From Lingula anatina (Eukaryota > Animalia > Brachiopoda), in contig CM120649.1 of NCBI GenBank assembly GCA_051362555.1, positions 15,762,567 through 15,826,566 on the forward strand: a stretch of 64,000 nucleotides of DNA, given 5' to 3'. Within the stretch, counting starts at the first letter, position 1, and each line of letters starts with the position of its first letter. A program made the translations under genes and the position numbers. Under the pieces are notes generated by a model. It had not been told where the DNA came from. It did no database searches and was given only the letters and a program-made list of their open reading frames with translations. Of this stretch, positions 10,058-63,405 are shown piece by piece.

Positions 10058-40846
<30,789 letters not shown>

Positions 40847-40899
40847 CTCGGTAGAGAAGCGTGAAAAATCACGGGTCGAGTACAAACGAAGTCGGCCTC

Positions 40900-41249
40900 C
40901 TTTCACATTTTGTGTTCATTCGAGTTTAGCCTCTAAACTTTAGCCTCCAACTCCTGTTGTGAATGACTAGAAAATGCCCTGTATGTAACATAGGCGGAAT
41001 AATCATACGCATTCACATATGGGTAAAATAATTATTTTTTTGTGAATATTTTCTCAGTCACATACATATGCTAATCTAAGGCTGCATATAGTATAAAATA
41101 AGTAAATTTGTTTGGAATTGAGAGTATAATACATGACGCATGCGCATTATGTTCAGTATGGTAGCGAAGTAACTTCCGTTATGTTCATGTGAGAAGGATT
41201 TTTCGAAATATTGTATTGATTTGGCGTGGATTGGGCCTTTTTGTGTACG
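40900..41249. promoter_or_regulatory. Probable bidirectional promoter between RYK (-) and CWC15 (+), including the putative non-coding first exon of CWC15 ending at 41249
   Basis: Head-to-head arrangement; TGACGCATGCGCA (CRE/NRF1-like) at about 41133-41145, ACTTCCG (ETS-like) at about 41172, donor CG|gtaagg at 41250. Confidence 0.5.
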
Positions 41250-41588
41250 GTAAGGGATGTAAAACATACCAAAGTTATATACTTTTTATATGTATTTAAT
41301 TTATTGTGTACATAAAGGCGATAACTTTGCGGTTTTTCTCCTTCGTCGTAAAACATCGTTGTTGCTTGATTGCCCTTAACTTGTATGTGTAGAAGTTGAA
41401 GTCTGAAAAATGAAATGGCTCTTCTTTATTTCTGGATTACGTTCAAGTTCACGTTCTGAACTGAATAATAATCTTTAAACCAGGAAGGTTTCTAGAAGTA
41501 TCTTTCCAAGGGTAAAATATTGTCAGTCTGTTGCCCTAGTATCATTGGTGAAAGTATTCAGGATGTAGTGCCAGGGGCAGGTAGAACC

Positions 41589-41662
41589 GGCCGGGTAGCT
41601 CAGTAGGTAAGAGCACTCGCCCTGTAAGCGAGGGGTCCCGGGTTCGATTCCTGGTCTGGCTG
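41589..41662 (+). tRNA. tRNA-like (Thr-TGT-like) sequence in the 5' LTR; element-borne, probably not a translational tRNA
   Basis: Cloverleaf GGCCGGG-TA-GCTC..GAGC-A-CTCGC-CCTGTAA-GCGAG-GGGTC-CCGGG-TTCGATT-CCTGG-TCTGGCT; intact A and B boxes; C at position 33 and three G-U pairs in the acceptor stem. Confidence 0.6.
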
Positions 41663-41779
41663 GTGATTTTTCTGCACTCACCCCAAATCGCTACAATGGT
41701 GGCAGCGGTTGTGAGAGATAGGGCTCGCGTCTTTCGGCATTTGGGGGGGAGGAGTGTAGTGCCAGGGGCAGGTAGAACC

Positions 41780-41853
41780 GGCCGGGTAGCTCAGTAGGTA
41801 AGAGCACTCGCCCTGTAAGCGAGGGGTCCCGGGTTCGATTCCTGGTCTGGCTG
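41780..41853 (+). tRNA. Identical tRNA-like (Thr-TGT-like) sequence in the 3' LTR
   Basis: Same sequence as 41589-41662. Confidence 0.6.
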
Positions 41854-42609
41854 GTGATTTTTCTGCACTCACCCCAAATCGCTACAAGGATGTGCCTCCA
41901 GGATTTTCATCTTTTTCATTACTTAATCACTTCCATTCATCACTTGAATGCTCCATGTAAAACTTTATGTTACTATCTTATGAGATCTTGAAAGCTAATT
42001 AGGCTCAGCTCTTTTAGTTCTCTAAAGTATTCACGGTGTCTACTTACTGAATTGGAGAGTGATCACTGTGGCTGTTGCTAGGCTCTGTGAGAGTTGTAGA
42101 GATCCTCGATCGTAGCACGTCCGAATCGGAGTGGAAGATCCTAGACAATGCCACAGCGACGGGTATGATGTCACAATATTGACAATCGTCAGTAGGGGGC
42201 GTGCTCTCCCCACCTGACCCGACTCACTCACCTGTTGGGGCCTATCTTGGCACATGATGAGCAGACCAGGTGGAGGAAGGAAAAAACTCTGATTACAACA
42301 TCTCTAATCCATCATTCTTGGTATATGATCTGATTTTCTTGCCTTGCTTTAAACTTATTGTATATTTTTTCTATTTCAGAATACTTAAGACTGTTTGACA
42401 CATGTTGTGTCACATCACAGTAGACCAGCACAGCCCTGGATGACTACAGTCCTTCTATATCTCTAATCCAACGTTCTTGGTATAGGATCTGATGTGCGTT
42501 AAACTTAGTGTCTATTTTCTCTTATTTCAGAACACTTAAGACTGCTTCCCATAGCTGGTTCACATAACTGCAGCTTAGCTGTTTCACACTGCAGTAGACC
42601 AGCAGAGAG

Positions 42610-45380
42610 ATGACTACAGCTGCGCGTCCAACATTTGAGCCAGCGCGGGGAGGGACTGGGAAAGGAGAAAGGGATCTCGGTGCTTTGTCCAAACAGTATT
42701 CCAGCAGAGATTTACCATCACATACTAAACTCAAGTACAGGTAAGGTGTAGCTTGGTTGAAATATTTAATCATCTTGTAAAAATATTGGATTTGTTTTCT
42801 TGTTTCCTATTAGAAATAATTTAATACCAGTTCTACCAAAAAAAGCAGCTGTGCTGTTGACAACAAAATTCATGAATTGTACTAATCATTTTTACTGATT
42901 AAAAACATTAAAAAACTGATTGCATAATTTTAACTTTTATATTATGTATACACACATACAAATAGATGCAAGATGATCCATTTTAGCTATTAAAATTCCC
43001 TTCAGTTCCTTCAGTAACTTTGAGTACATTATGTGGTACATATTGTAAATTGTGGTAGTTGAGACATCATCATATACATTTAGATGGTATTGAAGTGAGT
43101 GATTGTTCTATAGGTATTAGGAAACATTTTTAAGAAGGCAGTTTTTAAGTGCTGCTTGTGGCAATAACTTTGTTAAAGGAATATTTAGTTCACTTCTGTG
43201 TACTTTCCCCGATCCTGAAAGGAATAAAGCACAATGTGTTTTGTAATTTGTGCCAGTAACTTTGTAATAGGTGAAATGTTCTGTCCCCTCTTCCCTCTTC
43301 TTTAATGGAAAAGTCAGTGTGTTAGTTGTGACAGTGATTGTGTTGATACACATCATGCTGTATTTCAGACAAGATGGCCAGAACACAGCTGATGACCTGC
43401 GCAGCCGTGATTTCCGCAGCCATTTGGAGGAGAGGGAGAGAGCAGCGCGGGAAAAGAGAGACAGAGATAGGGGGAGAGGTGAGGAACATGTAAAACATAT
43501 TTAATTTTAAAAAAGTGTATGAACCTATAATAATGATGGTGATGAGGAAGGTGATATAAGAAACTGATAGGATGACATTGGGAATTGTTAAATGAAATAT
43601 TTCAATATATTTTTATCGGTTGGTCAGATATCGTTTTAGTTGTGAGCATTTTAAAAACTGAACTTAGTTTGCAAAAATTCGGATCAAAATAAACTTTGTT
43701 TTCAAAAGTCTTACTAAAACACTGAGCACCCCTTATCATGACACAACACACTTCACACATCTTACCATGTAATAACTTATTGAAAATCTAATATATCCTC
43801 CTCATCAGAATATCATGTGGATAACAAGGGTATCTATTTGTATATACAGATAGCAGTAGCAGTAAGAGACCTAGACTAGATCAGATCCCAGCAGCAAACC
43901 TGGATGCAGATGATCCCATTGACGATGATGATGTGAGTTCGATATATTAAACTTATTCTTGTTTTATAGAAAAACCACTCTATGACTGCAATTCTTTCAT
44001 TTTGAAATGTTATATTAAATCACAACGGAGGTTATTTCAGTGATAAAAGCATTAATTCAGTCATTTAAATATAATATAAATGAGATATATATCATCAGAA
44101 AGTATTTCACTGTCTCAACAGTGAACTAAAAAGAAGTATAATACATAGAAACTGAGTCAAAAAGATCAGAAATGTGCTTGTTTAGAGAGAGAGATGGAGC
44201 CTGTTGACAAAAACTACTTTAAAACTTTGTCTGTAATTGCTGTTATCAATATTTCAGGATGAGGAAGAAGACAGCAGTGATGACGAGGATGATACAGCAG
44301 CACTGTTAGCTGAACTCCAGAAGATAAAGAAAGAAAGAGCCTCAGAGGCGGCCAAGAAGGCAAGTCTTTCTAAGATCAAGGGACATTAAATATTGATTAT
44401 TTTCAACTGCAGAAATAAAAGGATATATGTCGAATGCAGTTAATTGCGATTAGAAATCACTACTTTAAGCTTTTGCTTAATTAACAACCTAGTGCATACA
44501 GTGCGTTGATGAAAATTGATGAATTATTTTAGTTTTTAAATATTATGAAATATCACATGAATGAAAGTACAAAATTAAAGTACAGGTATTGTTTTTACTG
44601 ATTAATATATTGTGAAACATGATATGCATGGTGTGACCTTTGACCTGTGTATGTTACTATACCAGGAAGCTGAGCGTAAAGCAGAAGAGGAGCGCATCAG
44701 GATGGAGAACATCATCAAGGGAAATCCTCTACTCCATAACCAGGCGGACACTGCCAAGACAGACTTCAAAGTCAAAAGAAGGTTTGTTCACCACCAGTTA
44801 CCTCTGAAAAGAGAACCTCACTTTCTGGGGTCTAAAAATGAATTAAATAATTATTTCTAGTGATTTGCAATCATTTTCTGTGCATTTGATCACTTAAAGT
44901 TTTAAAGAGAGAAGTGTGGGTTATCAGCTGTGTATTGATCACACTGATGCAAGTGTAGTTCACCCCCTTTAAAGTGTGCATTGATAAATTTTATAATACA
45001 AATGGGATAACTTCCACTTTCTACTGCTCTAGTAAATAACATTTGCTAAATTAGTCATCTTTGAATTCTTTGTTAGCAATAATGAAAACTGCAATTCTTT
45101 TCTTGTTTAAATTGTGAAATTGCACCTGGGTTTAAAATATGTCACTAATAAGGTGAATCGGATATCTATATCAACCAAACAGGTAGATAATGTGTTAATT
45201 ACTTCTTTGACTTTAAAAATTTAATCAGTGTTAATCCACTGTTTCCATTCCAGATGGGATGATGATGTCGTATTCAAAAACTGTGCGAGAGGCGAAGAGG
45301 ACAAGAGCAAACGTGGCTTTATCAATGACTCCTTACGATCAGAATTCCACAAAAAATTCATGGAAAAGTACATCAAATGA
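42610..45380 (+). CDS. CWC15: Spliceosome-associated protein CWC15 (Cwf15/Cwc15 family); 6 coding exons, 669 nt, 222 aa
   Basis: Exons 42610-42740, 43369-43478, 43850-43932, 44258-44359, 44666-44781 and 45254-45380 join in frame. [15 protein letters not shown]...[90 protein letters not shown]. Confidence 0.97.
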
Positions 45381-46967
45381 CACGCTTTTTATATGGACTG
45401 CTTTAAATGGATTCAGTAGTAAATGAGGAGGAAAGGATACAGAGTCGCGTTTTAGAAGGAATTATTAAAACTGCATTTCACATTTAGCAATCTGATTTAC
45501 CCAAAAGGTGAACCATTTGTGATGAACTGCATCTTTTATAGGGATGCTTGCAGAGTGTGAGAATTGATGATAAAACATCGTTTTTAAGGCAAAGGATGGA
45601 TCTGTTGTGTTATGTCGGCAATTCTGGGTGTAACACACACAAGTTACGTGATTCTCAATAAGTCACTGAATCGTCTCGTGCAAGGAACATTTTCATTTTC
45701 ACAGACAAATATGATCGTGTAAACTGCAAAAGAGATTTCTTTTTCAAGTGCTAAATGTAAGACATTGTTCTGGATAGGGACTAAGAAAATATCACCAGAA
45801 TGTTGATAATACAGGAGATTAAGTAAATTAGAGGAACACTTTCGTTTTAGTGACGATTTCATAAATGCGCCAGTGGAAACAATGATCCCTGATAATATTT
45901 CAACTGTTTGTATAGAATCTTTACACACTAGGTCTATGAAGTAAAGGTGGCGTTATTTTAAAGAAGTGATTGAGACTTCAATTTTTATAATGAATTATAA
46001 TATAAATTTGATAAGTGTTGTGTTCTGTCTATATCAAGTCACTTGATCAACCGGTAAGCAGAAGGGACATTATATTAACAATTACAAAGTAAGCTTTTTA
46101 ACCCAACGCGAACCACAAACAGCTTGCTCCGATTTTTCTTTAATGTTTATGCAAAATAAAATCAAATCTTAAAACTTTCCGAGAAAAGACAACGTGATAG
46201 TTTATCATGAAATAATACGAAAACCAAAAGCCATTTGAAGCTATATATTGCGACCTTTACTTCAATATGTTCACGTTCAACAAGATTTAACCAATTTTGA
46301 CATGATTGCGATTTTAATTTGCGCTATATGCAGCGTAACACTAAATCAGGAATGTTTTAACTGTAATATGCAGATAGGGTCTCATCCCTGACTTACGATA
46401 TCACATATCTTATAAAAACAAATTCCACTTAAATATCTATCTTAATATCATTCAAATGATTAATCTTAAGTAAAACAGATATACGTAGAAAGTGCAAGGT
46501 TTCGCATATTACCAAGATTCTAGATCTGATATTGTTGAAATAATAAAATGTAAGCATGTATGATTACAAATCACAGTCACAGCGATTGTTAAAGAATTGT
46601 GAACATGATTGTTTCTTTCTTTTTTTTTTTTTTTTTTCGCTTCTGTCGTAAATTTCTTTATAACGCTAACGTCCAACGTTTAAATCATGACCTCGAACAG
46701 TTTTGTAAAGCTCACTTTACACTAGATTTTGTAGGCTACTCTACATTTTAAAAAATATAACCCCGTGGTAATTTGATTTCGCCGGACAATTTCTATTTAA
46801 TAAATCCAAATTTTAATGAACACCGCGGGCATATAAACGATGCAATTGTGACCAAAACATTTAATTTGTGCCCTAGACTTGAAAAGAGTATATTTGTTTT
46901 CAGAATAAACAAAAAGCAGTTCTTTTTAACAATATATATACACATAATGCGAGTATCATCTCTGCTT

Positions 46968-47969
46968 CTATTTCACTTCATTGGTCTCAATAAAGTTCAA
47001 CTTTTTCTTTTCGGTCTGCTTCTTTAGACCGACTTTAGAGGGCGCTCTGAGCAGTCCCAGGACCTGGCCGCTCCCATCCCGCGCCTTACAGTACCCCCCA
47101 CTGCCACACACAGGGTAGTTGGTGGGACAACACCGGTTGTCAGGACAACAGATGGGAAACTCCAGCTTGCAGCAGTGCTGGTCCGGGGCGCCGCAACATA
47201 CCGGGTAATCCTTTGGACAGCAGTGCTGATCCGGGGCACAGCACGCGCCGTCCGCTAGGGGGCAGCACCAACTCTCGGTCAGGTTCTTCTTGACGTAGCC
47301 GAGGAACGGCATCGTGTAGGAGCAGCATTTGGTGTTCAGGCCACAGCAGGCACTGGAAATCGGGCACTGGCTGGGGTAGCTGCCGAAACACGGGCAGCCC
47401 AGACGGATGTGTCCTGACAACTCCAAACACCTAGAAGCAGTGTCGTAGTCTTGGCAGTACTTGGTCAGCATTAAGTCGTCCGCGGCGCCCTGCCAGTTGT
47501 TGACCCGGAAGTACCCGAGGAAAACCGTGAAAGTGGCTAGTTTCGTCCCGCCCAAATTGTACGCCATGTCAACCACGGCATTCTGGACAGGACAGCACAA
47601 GCTTGGGAAGTTAGACATCAGTCTGGAGGCGTCCATTAGTGCCTGTTTGACTGAATAATTAAAAAGACCCTCAATCTGGGTGTCATTCAGGCAGACGACT
47701 TTGCTGCAGTCGCATGTCTGATCTACGGGCGTTGAAGCACCGTTGAAAATCTTGTTAAAATCTGCTCCGACGGACGCTAAGGCTTGCTGTGCACCCTGGA
47801 GCTGCAGGTTAAAACCTATCCCGATTGTCTTGATCCCCCGTGTGTCCTTGTACATGCATTTCCTGGTCCCCTCGTGGCGTCTGATCATTGGCTTGGGGTC
47901 ACATGACTGGACAGGCGAGTCCAGTGTGACTATCGCCACCACTATTGTTATCCGTATGAAGAGATTCAT
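46968..47969 (-). CDS. Secreted phage-type (T4-like, GH24) lysozyme fused to a C-terminal granulin-like Cys-rich module, 333 aa, single coding exon
   Basis: Signal-peptide-like MNLFIRITIVVAIVTLDSPVQS, then IRRHEGTRKCMYKDTRGIKTIGIGFNL (T4 lysozyme: [27 protein letters not shown]) with the E-x8-D-x5-T triad; AVVDMAYNLG and NWQGAADDL match the T4 C-lobe; tail WCCPLADGACC..D.HCCPKDYPVC. Confidence 0.88.
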   Translation of the reverse strand: MNLFIRITIVVAIVTLDSPVQSCDPKPMIRRHEGTRKCMYKDTRGIKTIGIGFNLQLQGAQQALASVGADFNKIFNGASTPVDQTCDCSKVVCLNDTQIEGLFNYSVKQALMDASRLMSNFPSLCCPVQNAVVDMAYNLGGTKLATFTVFLGYFRVNNWQGAADDLMLTKYCQDYDTASRCLELSGHIRLGCPCFGSYPSQCPISSACCGLNTKCCSYTMPFLGYVKKNLTESWCCPLADGACCAPDQHCCPKDYPVCCGAPDQHCCKLEFPICCPDNRCCPTNYPVCGSGGYCKARDGSGQVLGLLRAPSKVGLKKQTEKKKLNFIETNEVK

Positions 47970-49198
47970 CGTGTCCGTGGTCTGGAATAGAGATCGATGA
48001 AAATTATAGAGTCCGAAATCAATTTTAAGAGAAGACAAAAAAGAGTGAGAGAGTAAAAACATTTCCCTTTTTGTTTCCTGCAAGGTACATATGACTCATG
48101 TGCGTATGTCCTGTAATTAGCTGCTTTCGTTCCCCAATATAAGGTTATTGTAAACATTGTTGATGGAATAACCTTTTTAGAAAGAGGGTGGTAAAATGCC
48201 AAAAGCCTCCCTCCCCCTGTTGCAGTGAAACATTACTCATACTGCCCATGATTAAAATAATACAAAATAATATCTCCAGGGCGGTGTGACTCGTTCGTTT
48301 CATGGCCAGACCAGCGGAGACAGAGTGTGCTCTTAAGGCCCATAATTATATATATATAAAATAATGCCATTCTAGTATGATGATATAAACACGGAAAATG
48401 GTCCCAAACTTGCGATTGTAATGAAAGAAAACATAACGACGACTTTTAATCATCTAGTTATCTCTATTTCTCAGTATCACTAGCTAGTTTCTAACACTAC
48501 TGCCAAACAGACGTCGTTAGAGGTGTTTTTGCGAAAAGAAGACGAATAAGATGTAAGTTTTGATAGGCAGAAAAGTTGAACATTATTGTCCATACTGATA
48601 AGATCAAATTACACGTTAACACAAACACACAGGAACAGACGTCTTTAGCGTATGGAAATCTATTTTTATGCCTTTTATAATTTTTTCATTACACACTGGA
48701 TGGATCATTATCATTAAAACTGCAGCGCCCACGTCGCGTATAGCTGTGAAATTCGTAGCGAGTGATATATAGGAACTCATCACAATGGGCATAAAGGGAT
48801 CGATTGCTTACGGATCGATTGGTCATTTATTTATTTTATATATTATGTTTCAAAGTTTTGATGTAGCCTGTCATATTTGAGACTGACTATTGTACTTGCC
48901 CTCAAACGAACTGCACCAGGGCTTATGTAGGCCTTACCACGTTTCCCCATCAGACTGTCTTACCATGCGTTACGTTAACCTGTTATGTTTGTTATTGGCA
49001 AAACAAATCTGGGTCACACGCAACACTTGATCATGAACAAACGACTATGCTAGCAAACGCTCTAGATCGACTTTTAAACCTGCTCAGAATCCGGTGTGAT
49101 TGATGTCATTTTTGGTACTTAACTGTCCTAAAGTACACCTCAATCTTCATAGGCTCTGTACAAAATGACCAAGGCTTATAGGGTCTTATATGTCTTAC

Positions 49199-49291: not shown

Positions 49292-50412
49292 CTTAAAACT
49301 GGAACACCAAACTCTCCACCCTCAAGGCTAGATCTTCTTCACCTGCACACACCTGCTACTGTAGCTGCGACTTCCGCGTCTCGTGCGCTGTTGACTCCCT
49401 TTGTGTCAGGTGTGTTGTTGACCCTGGGTTTCGTTCACGGTCACATGCTCCCAAGTGAGGAGCCTTAAGTCTGTGCTTGACTCACAGGCGGTAATATGAA
49501 TGACGTAGTTATACCGCTACCGTATGCTACGGAAATATGAGAGAGAGGGAGAGAGAGAGATATGTCATTATAGTACAAATAGCCAAGTGTAGATACATTA
49601 TACATACGATAATGATCACTTTCATGTGAAAAAAGTAAACAATGCCACTGTACGGATGACCAAGAAGTTATAACTTCTTGGGATGACTAATATCAAGGAG
49701 TTATAACAGAAGGTTCTGTTATAACTCCTTGCTAATATATACTAGTCAAGGCACAGAGTATTACTACATGGAGAAAGTATTGGGTTATCATTTATCGGTT
49801 TTCTTGTTTGTACAGTTGCACTGTCGATAATTATATCATTTTTGAAAAAAAAGTACTTTGCTACGTCTGACCGGATCCATATGTAGACGTGTTAATGCAC
49901 AGGCAAACTCCTGGCTTTGAAAAAAATATAGAGAACGAATGGTTATAAGAGTACGGTGGAAAATGAGGCGTGAAAGTCCGCATTGACTGAACCAGGTTGG
50001 AAGATCCTTAATGTACTGTACGACTGTGATGTGCAGCATTAAACAAGATCGATTGCGAGATATTTATTTGATTTATTTAAATCATTACACTAACTTCACA
50101 TCAACTTCGATCCCCAAATTAATAGACGACTTTCGTTGTTTTTGAATGCACATAATTACCCTTTGTATGCCGGAAGATAACAACTTGGTTTTGAATAAAT
50201 GAAAAATTAATGAATGCATAAAACACTTCTTTTATGCTATAAAATCAAAATCCTGGATATCATCTTATTACCATTAAACTGAAACACCTGTGGCAATATG
50301 ACGTTGTGATAAATTTACAAACATAAGTATCCGCCAGTCTGCTTAATTCACTTCGCCCACCATGGCAGCGGACAGCATGGTCGAAGACACCAGTCAAACG
50401 TCATCAATAAGC

Positions 50413-50579
50413 ATACTTACCTGGCACAGAAGTTAACCGTGATCATTAAGGCGGTTCTTCATTAGCGAGGCCTCACCATTGCACAATACGGTTTGGCTGA
50501 CCTGATCGATTACCCCAAATAGGGGTAACTCGGGTGCGCAATTTTTTATTGTGGGGGACTGCGTTCGCGCTATCCCCTG
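50413..50579 (+). ncRNA. U1: U1 snRNA (variant), copy 1
   Basis: ATACTTACCTGG 5' end, stem-loop II loop ATTGCAC, stem-loop III, U-rich Sm-like site, stem-loop IV GGGGACTGCG-TTCG-CGCTATCCCC; 167 nt. Confidence 0.95.
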
Positions 50580-50921
50580 ATTATGAAATCAAAATCAATC
50601 CACTAATCTTCCTCTGAGGTATCACCAACAAAACTAATATCTCACTCATTTTAAGTCAATAGATTTTAGTCGGAGATTCCACGTAAACAGTGCATTTCGC
50701 CTTGACTAAAGATCCTTTATGAATGACTGTGATGTGCAACATAACACAAGATACGATACGGCATACATTGTACATGCATGCTTGTGATCGCGGGGTATTT
50801 AATTGGTTCTGCATTGTGGGCTTCCTCTCGCCATATTACACATCTTTGTCCCCATTGGCTGGTTGTCTACAGTGATCGTAGACACTTTGATTGGCCAAAA
50901 GTCTACAGTTACTGTAGACGT

Positions 50922-51789
50922 TTAATAATAATAATAATAATAAGATTCTTACATGGCGCCTTACATTCTATCTCAAGGCGCCTTACAATAATGGCTAATA
51001 TACTAAAATCATTAAAATGACTACAATATTTTAATCATAAACTCTCATTGGAAACCATTTAAAATTTACACTACTAAAAATCAATCTTATTAAAAAAAAA
51101 ACATATATATATTAAAATAAAATCTAAGAGATATAGACAGAATTAAAAAAGTGGGTCTTTAAAAGAGATTTAAAATTGTCAAAGTCTTCTGTTTTCCTAA
51201 TAAAATTTGGTAGACCATTCCACACTTTTGGGGCGTAGATCATAAAAGCACGATCTCCATAACTTTTTAGGCACCCCTTCTCTAAAACAGAATGTTCTAA
51301 AATAAAATCATTCTCAGTATTAAAACGTGTGGACCGCCGTGGTAAGTTAAAACGGATAAGATCAGATAAATATAATGGTCCTTGTGAATGGATCGCCTTA
51401 AAAATAATACAGAGTACTTTAAAATCAATCCTCTGCTTCACAGGCAGCCAGTGTAATTCTTTCAGAATGGGAGTGATATGGTGTGTACTATTGTACTTAA
51501 TTTGACAAACCAGTCTTGCAGCTGAGTTTTGAATAACTTGTAACTTTTTAATCTGATAGTCACAAATACCAAAGAGACTATTGCAGTAATCTAATCTTGA
51601 TGATATAAATGCATGTACTAATTTTTCAGTGGTTTTGTTATCTAACACTTTCCTTATTTTTCCAATGCGCCATAGTGCATAAGATGCTGATTTACACACT
51701 TCAGATACACGCTTGCCCATAGTGCCATTTTCATCGAGGGTAACTCCCAGATCTTTTACAGAACTAGATGGTTTTATAAGAACATCTCC
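50922..51789 (-). mobile_element. 5'-truncated L2-clade (CR1 group) LINE: ORF2 C-terminus, 3' UTR and (TTA)n tail
   Basis: ORF 51124-51720 LVHAFISSRLDYCNSL...LQVIQNSAARLV...HITPILKELHWLPV...GDRAF...FKSLLKTHFF; tail at about 50924-50943; inserted in the spacer of U1 unit 1. Confidence 0.9.
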
Positions 51790-52246
51790 TAACCAAGGGA
51801 ATGCCGTTGAACGTAGACTATTACCGCTCCACGAGTGCTTTTTATTGTAAAAGAGCTTCTAATATGGGGAAATTGTACACATTCTGTTCGAAGGCCGTTT
51901 GAGATGAAAAAACCATTACACTCACTACACACCAACTTCGATCCCCAAGTAAATACGACGACTTTCGTTATTTTTGAATGTACATAATTACCCTTTGTAT
52001 GCCGGAAGATAACAACTTATTTGACATATGGTTTTGAATAAATGAAAAATTGAAAGCCACCTCTTTTATGTTATAAAATCAAAATCCTGGATATCGTCTT
52101 ATTACCATTATACTGAAACACCTGTGGCAATATGACGTTTTGATAAATTTACAAACATAAGTATCCGCCAGTCTGCTTAATTCACTTCGCCCACCATGGC
52201 AGCGGACAGCATGGTCGAAGACACCAGTCAAACGTCATTAATAAGC

Positions 52247-52413
52247 ATACTTACCTGGCACAGAAGTTAACCGTGATCAATAAGGCGGTTCTTCATTAGC
52301 GAGGCCTCACCATTGCACAATACGGTTTGGCTGACCTGATCGATTACCCCAAATAGGGGTAACTCGGGTGCGCAATTTTTTATTGTGGGGGACTGCGTTC
52401 GCGCTATCCCCTG
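52247..52413 (+). ncRNA. U1: U1 snRNA (variant), copy 2
   Basis: As copy 1; stem-loop I loop GATCAATAAG. Confidence 0.95.
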
Positions 52414-53174
52414 ATTATGAAATCAAAATCAATCCACTAATCTTCCTCTGAGGTATCGCCAACAAAACTAATATCTCACTCATTTTTAGTCAATAGATTT
52501 TAGTCGGAGATTCAACGTAAACAGTGCATTTCGCCTTGACTAAAGATCCTTTATGAATGACTGTGATGTGCAACATTACACAAGATACGATACGGCATAC
52601 ATTGTACGTGCATGCTTGTGATCGCGGGGTATTTAATTGGTTCTGCATTGTGGGCTTCCTCTCGCCATGTGACACATCTTTGTCCCAATTGGCTGGTTGT
52701 CTACAATGGTCGTAGACTCCAAACTCTGATTGACCAAGAGTCTGCAGTTCCAATGGAATGCCGTTTTATTATGAAAGAGCGTCCAATATGGGGAAATTGT
52801 GCACATTCTGTTTGAAGGCTGTTTGAGGTGAAAATACATTACACTCATTTCACACTAACTTCGATCCCCAAGTTAACACGACGACTTTCGTTATTTTTGA
52901 ATGTACATAATTACCCTTTGTATGCCGGAAGATAACTTATAAGACATATGGTTTTGAATAAATGAAAAATTAATGATTGCATCTAACACTATTTTTTGTT
53001 ATAAAATCAAAATCCTGGATAGCGTTTTATTACCATTATACTGAAACACCTGTGGCAATATGACGTTTTGATAAATTTACAAACATAAGTATCCGCCAGT
53101 CTACTTAATTCATTTCGCCCACTATGGCAGCGGACATTATGGTAGAAGACACCAGTCAAACGTCGTTAATAAGC

Positions 53175-53341
53175 ATACTTACCTGGCACAGAAGTCAACC
53201 GTGATCATTTAGGCGGTTCTTCATTAGCGAGGCCTTACCATTGCACAATACGGTTTGGCTGACCTGATCGATTACCCCAAATAGGGGTAACTCGGGTGCG
53301 CAATTTTTTATTGTGGGGGACTGCGTTCGCGCTATCCCCTG
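53175..53341 (+). ncRNA. U1: U1 snRNA (variant), copy 3
   Basis: As copy 1 with a few substitutions; stem-loop I loop GATCATTTAG. Confidence 0.93.
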
Positions 53342-53562
53342 ATTATAAATCAAAGTCAATCCTTTCATCTTCCTCTAAGGCATCACTAACAAAACCAATA
53401 TTTCATTCATTTTTTGTCAGTAGATTTTGGTTGGAGATTCCACGTAGACATTGCATTGCGCATATTGACTGCCCCAGGAGGAAGGATCCTTTCTGTAAGT
53501 CTGTGATGTGCAGGAATACACAAGATACGATACGACATACATTGTATATATATATATATATA

Positions 53563-56140
53563 CAACATTGGTCAAAAAGGTTGTCCCACCCCCATTTCCA
53601 TGTACAGGGTTACCACTTAATATGGAATATTTTTTATCATTGTTATTTTTGAGTGCTGATTAATTTTTTTTAGCTTGAGTCATTAAAAAAGTATGTCACA
53701 GAGTGATAATAACATCCAGTCTTCTGTTGTGAGATATTTTGGTCAATAATATTAAATCTGACATAAGATGCCATTCAAAAGAAAGGAACACCCCCAGAAA
53801 ACCATATCAACAGTTTGATGTCAGTATAAACTTTAAGATAAGATATTAAAAAAAATGATAACCTCCGGACAGTGATATGTTACACAGTCAAAGAACTCAC
53901 TACAGTAAATCATGGAAAGTCAGTAATTGCGGGTATGACCTCCAGCAGCCGCTTGCCGCGACCTCATCCTACATGGCATATCCTGTGACACGTTTTTTAG
54001 AGTTTGGGTGGGGATATCATTCCACGCAGTGATATTTGCCTGTCGCAGTTCATCACTATTTACCGGCCAAGGACCATAGCTATTAAACCTGTGAGTTACT
54101 TCCGCCCACAGATTTTCAATTGGGCTCATATCTGGAGAGTTTGCAGGCCAGGGCAGTTGCTGAACCCATTGGTTTTGAAGAAAAACAGTGATTCTGCGGC
54201 CTCGATGTGGGGTTGCGCAGTCGTCTTGGTACACAAAGTTGTTCCTGAAGATGAATCTTACCAATCGAAGCATTGTTTGCTGTAGAATGTCTCTGTAGGA
54301 ATCCTGGATGAGGTTGCCTTCTAGAAAAAAAACTGGTTCTGGGCACCGACATGAAATACTCCCCAAACAGAGACGTTACCATCCCCTGCTTGCACCCTAG
54401 GCAGTACAAAATCATTGTTTTATGCCCCTCGTACACGTCGGTGGACACGGATTCGACGATCAACCCTAAAAAATCCATATCTGGCCTTATCACTGAAAAC
54501 AACGTGTTTTGGCTGCAAACGCACGTGGTCCCAAGCCCTTTGCAGACGTCGCTGTATATGACCTGCTGTTAACAGTGGTTTCCCTACTGGCCTTCGTGCA
54601 AAATAACCGGCTTGCAGAAATCTCTTGTTCACGTGGGACCTTGAAACGGGCGTTTGAATGACATTCTGCCTCTCTTTTCTGAGGACACTGGTTGTCTTTG
54701 TACGACCAGCACGGCCTCCACTAAGGAGAAGGCGATCCTGTCTTCTTGGTGTGATACGCGGACACCCAGTTCGAGGTATTGGAGTAGGTGCCCCTGTAGC
54801 AGCATTTCTTTGGAGGACTTCACAAACGGTTCCTGATAAATGTTGAATTACCTGGCAATGGCTGTCCGTTTCTGGCCATTTTCTCTGACAGCAAGAATCT
54901 CATAGTAAGCTGCGTTGCTTTGCTGTCGTACCATATCTTCACTAAGGTACCTGTCAAGTTTCAGAGCGATCCCTTTGTTGCTTCTCTAAACACGCTCCAA
55001 AGATTGACCAAACCCATGCGTTTTTATACAAGGGCAGAAATTGCCGAAAAGACCACCCCTCACATTTCTGACCACAGGACATGCAACTGCATGCATCAAT
55101 TGTTTCGAGAGTTGTGTGGTAATTAGGTAACACATCTGGCTACACATGGAGTGACACCTCAGCTTTGGAATTAAAGTAGTTAGAGAGAAATTAAATATTT
55201 TGTAGAAAATTTATTCGCCAAAAAATAATATTCCATATTAAGTGGTAACCCTGTACTTTTATTTACAAATGATCACCTCACAGCTGTAAATTGTTAGAAA
55301 TAGTGCTTTTTATTATACTCTGACTAACATGATTAATGGTTAAAAAAAATACAAAATAGTGGTGAAAATATACATTTTATACCGTTTAGTAAAATTTTGA
55401 GGTACCCCCTCAAATCCACTGTTTCACTGTGACTTCTACAGATGTAAAGAAATGTCTATTAAATTGAAAAGACGCCATCAAATGTCACCAAATTCACACA
55501 CAATATTAGCATTAGGGTCTGCTCATTAAAGGTCACGTGCCTAACAGCGTGTGCGTCTACCGCGTACTACAATTATCTCCTGTAGACGGCGCGACAAGCC
55601 TTCAACATGGGTAACAATTCTGTTATATGGGATATTGTCCCATTCATCCTAAAGAGCGTGGCGGAATTGGTCAAGATTATTTGGGAATTGGTTTTCCTCT
55701 GTAATGCACATTCCAAGTAATGCCACAGGTGCCCAGTAGGATTAATATCAGGGCTCAAAGACGGTTGTCCCCTCCTCAGAGTCCTGTGTTTCTGCTACAA
55801 ATCGCTTGCCAGACGAGAGCTGTGAGCAAGTGCCTTGTCACAATGAAGCCAGTAGCATCCCTGAAGTCACCTCTTGCAAATGGAGTGAGATTTCTGTTGA
55901 GCATGTTACATTAAAATGCCCCTGTTACTTTTTGTTCCAAAAGGAACAATGTACTAATACCATGGGCTTGGAATGTTCTCCAAACGCGGACTGATTTAAC
56001 ACCTCAGGCAATATCCTACACACACCCTTCCAAGAGGCATTTTTAACATGCCTATCGACCCTCATTTGACCATCGATGGGATACAAGAAATAAGCAGTTA
56101 TCCATGCGTACATGCAGGAAACGTGTTCATTCTTTGTCAA
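53563..56140 (-). mobile_element. Older degraded Tc1-like element hosting the nested Tc1 above
   Basis: TA|CAACATTGGTCAAAAAGGTTGTCCCACCCC TIR-like start at 53563, resuming after 55255; second transposase remnant SPDINPTGHLW at 55573-55758; no matching right TIR found. Confidence 0.6.
53605..55253 (-). mobile_element. Full-length Tc1 (DD34E) DNA transposon with a disrupted transposase
   Basis: 27-bp perfect TIRs CAGGGTTACCACTTAATATGGAATATT with TA on both sides; transposase remnants from ATG at about 54934 to 53920 with stops and frameshifts: RRPVGKPLLT, VVFSD, QDDCATPH-(34)-SPDMSPIENLW, GGHTRNY. Confidence 0.93.
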
Positions 56141-58109: not shown

Positions 58110-59140
58110 ACTGTAACTAATTAAGGCATTTAGGTAACTGATCCATAAAGTCGGACCTTATTCTAAGATCAGAATTGTGAAATCGAGTCAATGAGTAGGC
58201 TTTTGGTATACTGAATACATGTATACTACATACTTGGACCTAATTCTAAGGCCAGAATGGTGGGGTTGAGTCTATGAATTGGAATTCAGTAAACCATCGA
58301 TTTAGTTTGTCATAATTCTAAGATGAGAGTGGTGGGATGGAGTCCACAAATAGGTGTTTAGGTAACTCATCGATAGACAGACATAATTCTTAGATGAGAA
58401 TGGTGGGATTGCGTCCATGAATAGCCGATCAGTAAACCGATCCATAGAGACGGACCTAATTTTAAGACGAGAATGGTGGGATTGCATCCATGAATAATCT
58501 ATCAGTAAACCAATCCATAGAGACGGACCTAATTTTAAGACGAGAATGGTGGGAACGATTCCATGATTAAGCTTTTAGTAAACTCATTGATACAATCAGA
58601 CAATTCTTAGATGAGAATGGTGGAATTGCGTCCATAAATAGCCAATCAGTAAGTCGATCCATATAGTCAGACCTAATTTTAAAACAAGAATGGTGGGATC
58701 GCGTCCATGAATAGCCTATCAGTAAGTTGATCCATGTAGACGGACCTTATTTTAAGACGAGAATGATGGGATCGCGTCCATGAATAGTTGATCAGAAAAC
58801 CGATCCATAGAGACAGACCTAATTTTAAGACAAGAATGGTGGGATTGCATCCATGAATAGCCAATCAGTAAACCGATACATATACACGGACCTAATTTTA
58901 AGACAAGAATGGTGGGAACGAGTCCACAGGCGTTTAGTAAACCCATCAATAAAGTCGGACCTAAATTTAAGACAAGAATGGTGGGACTGAGGTCATGAAT
59001 AGGCATTTAGTAAGATGATCAATATTGTGGAACCTAATTCTAAGATGAAACGGGTGGGATCGAGTCCACGAATAAGTTTTTAGTAAACAGATTGATAAAG
59101 TCAGACCTAATTTTGAGAGAATAGCAGTATTGAGTCCATA
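58110..59140. repeat. 73-bp tandem satellite, about 14 copies
   Basis: aatggtggga recurs at 58399, 58472, 58545 and onward at about 73-nt period; unit includes cagtaaaccgatccatagagacggacctaattttaagacgag. Confidence 0.92.
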
Positions 59141-60670: not shown

Positions 60671-60978
60671 CTAAAAATAACTAAAAACATATCTAGAGAT
60701 CATCTTTAGCGAAAAGTAGTCTTTATATTTCCTTTTGATACCAGGGAATAGCAAAATGCATAATTTAAAATTAAAAGCGTAACAACCAGAAACATTCATT
60801 AATATTATAATCAAAATTAAGAATTATCTTCGTAAAATATGTGGAGTTCATCTATGTGACCTTAAATTGTTTTGTTAAATTTATAAACATAGCTAAATAA
60901 TAATTATTTCTTTTTCTCTTAGCTATTATCTCAGCGAGCAGCAAGGTAAACTAATGAGGTCACGGCTCTGATACAAGC

Positions 60979-61145
60979 ATACTTACCTGGCACAGAAGTT
61001 AACCGTGATCATTAAGGCGGTTCTTCATTAGCGAGGCCTCACCATTGCACTATACGGTTTGGCTGACCTGATCGATTACCCCAAATAGGGGTAACTCGGG
61101 TGCGTAATTTTTTATCGTGGGGGACTGCGTTCGCGCTATCCCCTG
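60979..61145 (+). ncRNA. U1: U1 snRNA (variant), copy 4 with diverged flanks
   Basis: Coding part nearly identical to copy 1; flanks only patchily similar. Confidence 0.95.
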
Positions 61146-63405
61146 AAATCAAACTAAAATTAATATCACAAAGATTAGTCCCTAATATACCTCCTCTGTG
61201 CATGCCAAACCTTAAACTTGTTGGCACTCTGATAAGGATGGGGATGGAGTCTCTTGTCACGTATAGCCTTGACAAATATATTAACGCATGCCACTTACAT
61301 GTATCGACTCTTTCACAAAGGGTCCCTTATTTTGTTATCTAATTTTGTTACAAACCAGACCCCTTATCTCCTTGAGTGTACAGCAGAGTTTATGAATTTA
61401 AAGTTTTTTAAAAGCTTTTTTTTTTAAATTTTATTACAGCTCCATTAGAGAATACAACTAGAAATCATTAGGCCTGAAGGTACAAGGGTTCTAAATCTGG
61501 TGGAATATTGTTCATAACTTACCAGAGATGCGAAACATTTTTTAAAAGGCACCTTAATTATCATAATTGGTCAACACTTTTCTGTTATTTCTTTTATTTT
61601 TATTGACAACTTAAGAGGAATTATTGTCATTCCTAGATAAGTCCTCTAATTTTTTATAGGTTTATAAGTTTGTTAAATGATAATGATCCAAGACTTTTTT
61701 CATACAGAAAAAACTTTTTTCTTAGGTTATACCCTCAAAATTCTAACCGGCAATAAATGTGCCATTTTCAAATTGATTACCATCAACCTTTATAAGATTA
61801 AGAAAACAAAATCATATTATTTATTTATTTGTGTGCAACTTGGACACATTTCACATACTTTATGAAATTCTCCCCCCCCTTTTTACTTTGACACCCGCAT
61901 TGTCTTAAATGTTTCATATCTGAGTGTTGAATGAAAAAGTTTTTATGAAATTCCATTTTCATATTGCAAAATATATGTAACAACACCTCATAAGCACAAT
62001 TTTTAAAAACTTATTTTATTACAGACATAAATGTAATTACAATACATACAGTGCATATCAAATACAAATATTTACAATGTAAAAGTTACACATATACTGT
62101 GTATAAATCCAAGTAGCTAAATCACAAAACAGTGACAACTAAAACACAACTAAAACTTTCTCATGGTGAATAATTTAAAAATTCTTAAAAACCTGAAACA
62201 TGGCAGACATATAATACACAGCTGTTTGAGCTGTAAGTAAGAAAAAATTCATCCACACTTTTTTCATAATTGGCCTTCATAATTTTGTACTGCAATTTAT
62301 CCCCATATGTAAACTTCACATGCATGTGTGCCTTTTATGATGGGAAATTCGTCACAACTTCATATTATAACAATAAAAAGATGAAACTAATTAGAACAAC
62401 TTTCCATACTGTAAAAAAGGTGGAAAAAGGTCCTTCTTGAATTAAAATCTGATCAAGGCCTTTTCTCTATCAATCTTTGCCCTTTCTCAAGTTGGATTAA
62501 TTAAAATCCAAATGTCCAGAAATTTTGACTACAGGCCTATAATTCTTACTTGCATGACTGAGCAGGCCAGACCATGACCCCTGCTTTACAATACATAAAC
62601 TCAACATATCACATTAAAAAGTGAATAGAGATATATAATTATAAGAAATACTTACAGCATTAAACACAAATTTGTTAACATCAAGAGATTCTATAGAACA
62701 TGTTAAAACTTATATGTACTGATGAGCACTGTACATAAGCTCCCATTACACGAAAACACAACTTCAGCAAACACCCAGCTGCAATGCTTTTAGAGTGAAC
62801 TGTTTTACAGTGAGCAAACTCATAACACCCCCCTCAGAGAAACTCTTTTGAAACCCTGGTCTAAATCAGATGTCTACATCAGTGGGTGACTAAGCTTCAT
62901 AAAAACCACAAAATGTGTTTTTATAACACAAGAAACAACTTTCTCCTACGTAGATTACTGCCAGTTTGGTTTGCATGCATCTCAGACCCCTCTGTCACCT
63001 TTATTTTAGTAACTAATATTGATATCATGATTGTAGACTCTGGCTCCACTTTCAGGAACAATTCAAAGACGGATCCAGAATTATATTTTCTGACAGTCTT
63101 CCAAATTATCTTTGTTGATCCAGCCTCCAATTTTGACTGTCTTCTGACAGCAAAAAATTAGATGTCCGTCAATGAAAACTTGAAAATCTGACCTAAATCT
63201 GCCCCTGCAAGTATCATATCATTGTAGACTCATGCAGGTTTCACTTTTATCTCAGATCCAATCTATCACTTCGGACACAAGAGGTACCACTGTCAATATA
63301 GTCTGACAGTCCATCCAATTTTAGGTCCAAAGAGACTCTACATCAATAATTTAAGATATCCCTCGGTAAAACCCGATATCCTGGACTGAGGGTGTTGACG
63401 TTCCT

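Follow-up and report, generated by a model that had tools for sequence, protein, structure and literature searches.

Helenus, Cassandra and Ajax are TRIM elements that carry a small-RNA-derived Pol III promoter in each of their LTRs; according to Kojima (2024, Biology 13:119, PMC10886601), this promoter is derived from tRNA in Helenus, whereas it is derived from 5S in Ajax and in Cassandra, a plant TRIM bearing 5S rRNA. A Helenus element is defined by two LTRs, a total length under 1000 bp and the lack of a coding sequence. In that paper, families were clustered at 75% identity and copies were counted at 90%, and what is conserved from one Helenus family to another is the A and B boxes (section 3.5). 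The animal Helenus elements have target-site duplications (TSDs) of 4 bp and primer-binding sites (PBSs) with likeness to those of Gypsy elements only, and a Gypsy element sharing their PBS was proposed to mobilise them in trans; Gypsy elements with a tRNA-Leu(AAG) PBS are printed in Fig. S2. Pol III transcription of Helenus was proposed and not validated, such validation being given for Cassandra only. Very recent activity has already been reported for a goldfish Helenus family. The main text has no mention of insertion polymorphism and no discussion of terminators in Helenus, its mentions of terminators concerning Cassandra. When supplement part 7 was inspected by eye and without a chance control, a T run of at least 4 was seen behind the B box in 22 of the 24 named LTRs; elsewhere in the supplement, 0 of the 3 fish LTRs shown whole have such a run there.

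For the brachiopod Lingula anatina, row 187 of Table S1 in the same paper gives the family Helenus-1_LAn with an LTR of 132 bp, an internal part of 59 bp, a full length of 323 bp and a TSD of 4 bp. In the supplement, the Lingula families are present as entries of Data S1 and Table S1 only, and the paper neither counts their copies nor assigns their PBS nor reports RNA for them. In the open-access literature, we found no follow-up on the Lingula families, and Kojima (2024) was the single relevant source found there under the name TRIMp3; PMC13570524, in the passages compared, only cites Helenus. Both the class (Helenus/TRIMp3) and the exact family of the element described below are already in print, and the discovery value of the present locus is small for this reason. 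What is added beyond PMC10886601 is a polymorphic site, its gene setting and the question of the terminator.

Structure and family identity of the element

The window, by which we mean the whole 64-kb stretch of L. anatina DNA that was analysed, has a GC content of 36.5% and contains spliced genes. At 41560-41890, a script finds AGGA, an LTR of 132 bp, 59 bp, an identical LTR of 132 bp and again AGGA in this order, the element itself being 323 bp long (Table 1). An earlier note made from the sequence alone had claimed this anatomy, including the TG...CA ends, the PBS and the polypurine tract (PPT), and it was confirmed base for base. No duplication of 5 or 6 bp fits the element ends, where the script finds only the 4-bp AGGA; the computed chance agreement of two random 4-mers from the window is 0.0057. 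In each LTR, the A box, the B box and a T5 run follow one another in that order, the A box starting at 41596 in the 5' LTR and at 41787 in the 3' LTR, and the B box at 41641 and 41832, respectively. Self-BLAST and a PBS pattern search found no further copy of the element within the 64-kb window, which also contains no Gypsy element with a matching PBS.

Table 1. Coordinates of the element, its parts and the surrounding gene in the window
Feature	Position	Strand	Basis or remark
Left target-site duplication AGGA	41560-41563	+	single copy in the empty allele (327 bases skipped)
5' LTR, 132 bp, TG...CA, short terminal inverted repeat	41564-41695	+	script
tRNA-like unit of the 5' LTR	41589-41662	+	A box 41596-41607, B box 41641-41651
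Anticodon loop of the 5' LTR tRNA-like unit	41621-41627	+	TGT, but C at position 33
T5 run behind the 5' LTR tRNA-like unit	41667-41671	+	from sequence; predicted role as Pol III terminator
Internal part, 59 bp, without coding capacity	41696-41754	+	only short overlapping frames
PBS, 13 nt, complementary to CCA-tailed tRNA-Leu(AAG)	41697-41709	+	single base (41696) separates LTR and PBS
Polypurine tract, 12 nt, all purine, abutting the 3' LTR	41743-41754	+	from sequence
3' LTR, 132 bp, identical to the 5' LTR	41755-41886	+	script
tRNA-like unit of the 3' LTR	41780-41853	+	Rfam and sequence
T5 run behind the 3' LTR tRNA-like unit	41858-41862	+	from sequence
Right target-site duplication AGGA	41887-41890	+	script
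CWC15 intron 1 (5' UTR intron, GT..AG, 1281 nt)	41250-42530	+	spliced RNA reads in 3 of 3 RNA runs
CWC15 coding exons, start codon 42610, stop near 45381	42610-45381	+	Pfam PF04889 and translations

Standard programs call a tRNA inside each of the two LTRs. ARAGORN assigns tRNA-Thr(TGT) at 41588-41663 and 41779-41854 and calls no tRNA besides these 2 anywhere in the window, Rfam RF00005 gives 58.5 bits to each unit (gathering score 29; E 2.5e-11), and pairing is possible in all four stems. These calls would be in favour of a genuine tRNA-Thr(TGT) gene that was duplicated in tandem, but a PBS and a PPT lie between the units and the whole matches a published TRIM, and we assign next to no probability to such a duplication. 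Elongator tRNAs have U33, and a functional cytoplasmic tRNA-Thr(UGU) has the canonical acceptor end G1-C72. Its cloverleaf is present in the units, but they have C33 in place of U33, G1-U72 in place of G1-C72, three G-U pairs in the acceptor stem and G73; judging from these letters, a unit probably does not function as tRNA-Thr. Every copy of Helenus-1_LAn is nevertheless registered by tRNA scanners as two tRNA-Thr(TGT) genes, and this inflates the tRNA annotation of the genome.

The fit of the PBS to tRNA-Leu, which had also been claimed, held good when we compared it by eye with the honeybee tRNA-Leu(AAG) end that PMC10886601 prints in Fig. S2: over 13 nt (41697-41709), the PBS is perfectly complementary to this tRNA with its CCA. 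If reverse transcription were primed instead by a tRNA-like RNA cut from the element's own LTR, the CCA-tailed 3' end of the unit could pair over 7 nt from 41700 (4 nt beyond TGG). This pairing, however, needs a non-consensus base of the window copy and would move the LTR end by 3 nt, whereas at the true PBS start of 41697 the unit pairs over 0 nt beyond TGG, against 13 nt for tRNA-Leu; moreover, no such complementarity was found by Kojima (PMC10886601). Self-priming, which we regard as extremely improbable, was rejected on the basis of these 0 nt at 41697, the 4 nt being obtained only in the register shifted by 3.

When compared by eye with Data S1 of PMC10886601, 316 of the 323 bases (97.8%) are those of the Helenus-1_LAn consensus, i.e. 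130 of the 132 LTR bases and 56 of the 59 internal bases. There are five variant sites in all (7 of 323 positions when both LTRs are counted): 41660 and 41661, with their twins 41851 and 41852 in the 3' LTR, and the internal positions 41710, 41711 and 41714. This family match would by itself make Lingula the most likely host. To look at the family in other samples, we used a public run index, which lists 21 runs with one organism label, 10 of them covering part of 40800-42700; five of the 11 listed DNA runs (X1, X2, X3, X4 and X10) were compared as contigs, and X5-X7 (sample same as X4), X8, X9 and X11 were left out. At 41710, 41711 and 41714, the published letters dominate the family depth, with 2226, 2226 and 2499 of 2499 in X1 and 3258, 3258 and 3479 of 3624 in X2. 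Because the family reads hold the published letters at variant sites, the comparison by eye with the consensus is confirmed.

The assignment to a Helenus-type TRIM made in the earlier note is borne out by the lengths, the TSD and this identity, while its suggestion of a probably new family has to be dropped: since all three lengths and the size of the TSD agree, the copy at 41560-41890 is best taken as a member of the already published family Helenus-1_LAn. In favour of a new, undescribed family, which we consider highly improbable, one could point to the five variant sites, at 3 of which (41660, 41710 and 41711) the window copy has the letter of Helenus-3_LAn, as read by eye from the consensus. 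Nevertheless, 97.8% is far over the 75% clustering threshold, and the remaining LTR follows Helenus-1, not Helenus-3, and the reading was rejected at the family level on the basis of this identity to Helenus-1_LAn. The variant pattern may reflect a minor sub-lineage or a template-switch mosaic of Helenus-1 and Helenus-3.

The consensus of Helenus-1_LAn agrees with the window copy in its termini, in the start of the PBS, in the PPT and in the tRNA-like unit and differs in the PBS match, which is 14 nt in the consensus and 13 nt in the window copy. Helenus-2_LAn and Helenus-3_LAn share with it the PBS start, the 4-bp TSD and an LTR in which a tRNA-like part is followed by a T run, and have a similar internal part and PPT, whereas their LTRs (127 and 132 bp) are clearly diverged and have other leaders and anticodon arms. 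Bivalve families in the same paper (e.g. Helenus-4_PiIm and Helenus-1/2_TeGr) are alike in having TG...CA LTRs, a similar tRNA-like unit and a 4-bp TSD, but their PBS types are Lys, His, Ile, Pro, Glu and Ser and their internal parts are unrelated. The anticodon loop at 41616-41632, which has C33 and TGT, recurs unchanged in the pearl-oyster Helenus-4_PiIm in Fig. S1 of PMC10886601. This common loop hints that the Helenus elements of brachiopods and bivalves go back to one ancestor or were passed from one group to the other.

Foldings gave z = -0.88 for the whole element (22 of 100 shuffles equally good), z = -1.91 for the LTR (10 of 200 shuffles as good), z = -0.16 for the tRNA-like unit and z = +1.68 for the internal part. 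Because a strong structural signal is absent from these foldings, we do not claim the long leader-trailer stem that is predicted in the LTR.

The empty site and the age of the insertion

Contigs in 4 of the 5 DNA runs join 41559 directly to 41887, so that the 323 bases of the element and 4 bases of one AGGA are skipped. This empty site is found in X1, X2, X3 and X4, which belong to three studies (P1-P3), with one contig each and full flank depth; the fifth run, X10, has no flank cover at 90%, and the empty site is thus found in 4 of 4 runs covering the site. An empty site with a 4-bp duplication is decisive structural proof of insertion. Both tRNA-like units and their spacer are jointly missing there and one AGGA is left, and tandem tRNA-Thr genes were rejected on this ground; the apparent tRNA-Thr pair consists of LTR parts, as the earlier note had supposed. 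A functional tRNA-Thr(UGU) gene should be a fixed locus, but the units are absent in every run that covers the flanks.

The presence of the empty site in 4 of the 5 DNA runs shows that this is a young and polymorphic insertion. Across 760 + 101 flank bases, 0 differences separate the contig of X1 from the window, while the left flanks of X2, X3 and X4 have 4 to 8 differences from it. The flank of X1 is identical and lacks the element, and therefore the insertion took place on a haplotype that is still extant in the empty form; the coexistence of carriers and non-carriers of the same flank haplotype means that the family moved very recently. The very recent insertion claimed in the earlier note had been based on the identity of the two LTRs, which for a 132-bp pair is a weak clock, zero differences being compatible, at the 5% level, with a divergence of as much as about 2.2%; the claim stands on the empty site, and presence/absence polymorphism is a stronger sign of youth than LTR identity.

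The filled allele was not found among the listed contigs of the 5 DNA runs, which show a minority of the pieces and drop rare variants. If the best-matching run came from the window's own source animal, this animal would be heterozygous or mosaic, or the filled allele would have been dropped by the contigs. The missing filled allele and the presence in X1 of the window's exact flank haplotype without the element would also be expected if the copy were an assembly artefact, i.e. a misplaced repeat contig. We nevertheless hold an artefact to be very unlikely: an assembler would not double exactly 4 target bases around exact TG...CA ends, the two non-consensus bases are common to both LTRs, and the runs compared are 5 samples only, in the form of contigs that drop rare variants.

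The depth of the internal part relative to that of the flank is 34, 37, 12 and 10x in X1, X2, X3 and X4, respectively, a ratio that is not a copy number, and contigs exit at or beside the LTR ends (41563/41564, 41695 and 41753/41755) into other flanks. Because of this raised depth and of the contigs leaving at LTR ends into other flanks, the family is interspersed. Two runs, X10 and X18, have the same species label as the others, yet they are strongly divergent; the reads of X18 are mostly 90-95% alike on CWC15 exons, and X10 holds Helenus-3-like pieces. The species label seems to cover distinct lineages having these TRIMs in common.

Transcription and proposed transposition

Taking the evidence together, we are highly confident that the locus is a very young, polymorphic copy of Helenus-1_LAn in intron 1 of the splicing-factor gene CWC15; the element is likely transcribed by Pol III and primed by tRNA-Leu, and its mobilisation by a Gypsy helper is predicted. 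In the cycle of LTR elements, the first strand is primed by a tRNA at the PBS and the second by the purine tract, and strand transfers complete the copy. For the present element, a source copy elsewhere would have yielded a 5' LTR transcript of about 274 nt that begins close to the tRNA-like unit, Pol III likely using the A and B boxes in this LTR; the RNA would pass the first T5 and stop at the second. Such read-through is required by the Pol III model because the first T5 should halt Pol III before the PBS. The LTR would accordingly be divided into a U3 of about 25 bp, an R of about 83 bp comprising the tRNA-like unit, and a U5 of about 24 bp. Host tRNA-Leu would prime at the PBS and the purine tract would prime the second strand, and two strand transfers would regenerate identical LTRs; the two non-consensus bases common to both LTRs are as reverse transcription from one RNA would give. 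Copying and integration would be carried out by proteins of a Gypsy helper, with a Gypsy-type integrase giving the 4-bp duplication, and the tRNA-like unit would likely serve as the promoter, being neither a working tRNA-Thr nor the primer. The Gypsy-type mobiliser favoured in the earlier note appears likely also from the 4-bp TSD together with the PBS likeness of animal Helenus to Gypsy only (PMC10886601).

RNA was examined in X12, X15 and X18, which are 3 of 9 added raw-read RNA runs, by reading 6%, 6% and 25% of each run; two libraries are poly(A)/oligo-dT and one is unspecified, and short unpolyadenylated RNA is lost by such libraries. The depth on the element in X12 is 3-9.5 in antisense and 2.5-4.4 in sense, compared with 173-247 on a CWC15 exon; it is 1.2-2.7, in sense only, in X15 and about 1 or less in X18. 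This depth is similar to that of the other repeat of the same intron. No Pol III transcript was seen in these 3 RNA runs, whose libraries are unsuited to short Pol III RNA, the depth being below 10 and having no pile-up of starts or ends. All covering reads have the consensus letters (12 of 12 over 41710-41714 and 9 of 9 over 41851-41852), and the family RNA therefore comes from other copies; it fits passive co-transcription within host RNAs.

These RNA reads bear also on the possibility that the template is a Pol II RNA reaching the element from a host gene, CWC15 for example; the tRNA-like unit would then be a relic or a fold for packaging or strand transfer. Most Pol III transcripts would stop at the T5 of the 5' LTR and be about 83 nt long, the family reads in a poly(A) library lie on both strands and have no discrete ends, and the window copy is in sense within a transcribed intron. 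We consider a Pol II template unlikely, however, with the A and B boxes intact here and being the conserved part across Helenus families, with a U3 of only about 25 bp, which is below the usual size of a Pol II promoter, and with the defined ends inside the LTRs that host read-through RNA would require.

Within the preferred Pol III reading, a more specific model can be proposed tentatively, at somewhat below an even chance: Helenus-1_LAn would be still jumping in living Lingula via Pol III RNA, and a leaky T5 would set the RNA ends, giving mostly an 83-nt tRNA look-alike and a minority of 274-nt template, the whole R being a cloverleaf that is kept paired by selection. The variant bases at 41660 and 41661 swap one G-C and one G-U pair, and the acceptor stem stays closed; Helenus-2_LAn, compared by eye, keeps this stem closed via other pairs. 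From the letters, this gives a weak hint that the tRNA-like fold is retained. If the model is true, it would be the first to show how an LTR element with a tRNA promoter works in an animal, and the segregating copy in the CWC15 intron, with its donor-like splice motifs described below, would be a natural test allele. Lingula is a usable system for the questions of Pol III drive, passage of the 5' LTR terminator and the Gypsy helper that arise from PMC10886601.

The host gene CWC15 and other features of the window

A match to PF04889 was obtained on 3 of the 4 exon pieces of CWC15 tested, 2 of them above the cut-off. Read cover places the untranslated first exon at about 41150-41249, and 57, 13 and 1 reads in X12, X15 and X18, respectively, are spliced to 42531; an alternative acceptor at 42594 is used by 7 reads spliced to 42595 in X18. 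The element lies in the gene's sense, 314 nt behind the donor of intron 1. When the 92 GT sites of the intron are ranked by a crude score, 4 of the 5 best come from the element, and its donor-like motifs have 7 of 9 consensus matches, which by this crude score equals the true donor; donor-like sites of the two LTRs lie at 41607 and 41798. No RNA reads with the variant letters of the window copy were found in the 3 RNA runs.

Several other observations concern the same gene. The sequences at 42300-42433 and 42459-42608 form a degenerate local duplication with a spacing of 150-174 bp and 80-90% likeness; it lies at the boundary of CWC15 intron 1 and exon 2, where the RNA runs differ in using the acceptor 42530 or 42594. 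In the same intron, 42016-42335 is occupied by pieces of a second high-copy repeat, with a depth up to about 2,900 against 73, and this repeat is found in the divergent run X10, too. Upstream, RNA reads diverge on opposite strands between 40736-40904 (-) and 41150-41249 (+), about 250 bp apart; CWC15 has a bidirectional promoter in common with a minus-strand transcript. The end of a very high-copy, SINE- or MITE-like repeat lies at 40400-40468, with a contig depth of 16,304 compared with 98 in the flank and with many RNA reads.

Further repeats are present elsewhere in the window. Remains of a Tc1/mariner-type transposase are found in separate frames at 53920-54899 (-), with matches to HTH_Tnp_Tc3_2 and DDE_3. 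A repeat of roughly 800 bp is present in three copies (88-93% alike) at 50079-53549 and in a fourth, partial one at 60975-61164. Between the first two of these copies, at 51124-51858 (-), there is a 244-codon frame with no Pfam match above the cut-off, which, going by a motif, looks like the end of a LINE reverse transcriptase. Offsets in self-BLAST point out tandem arrays at 23075-24353 and 58120-59140, with periods of about 161 bp and about 72 bp, respectively.

Among coding sequences, a protein tyrosine kinase exon (PF07714), presumably Ryk-like, is found at 11879-12295 (-). An intron-less frame of 375 codons at 46968-48095 (-) has a signal-peptide-like start followed by a phage-type lysozyme domain (PF00959; E 3.5e-05, above the cut-off) and then a Cys-rich tail, which matches granulin (PF00396) only weakly and below the cut-off. 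Horizontally acquired phage-type lysozymes are known from bivalves, and this fusion of a lysozyme with a Cys-rich tail may deserve a look.
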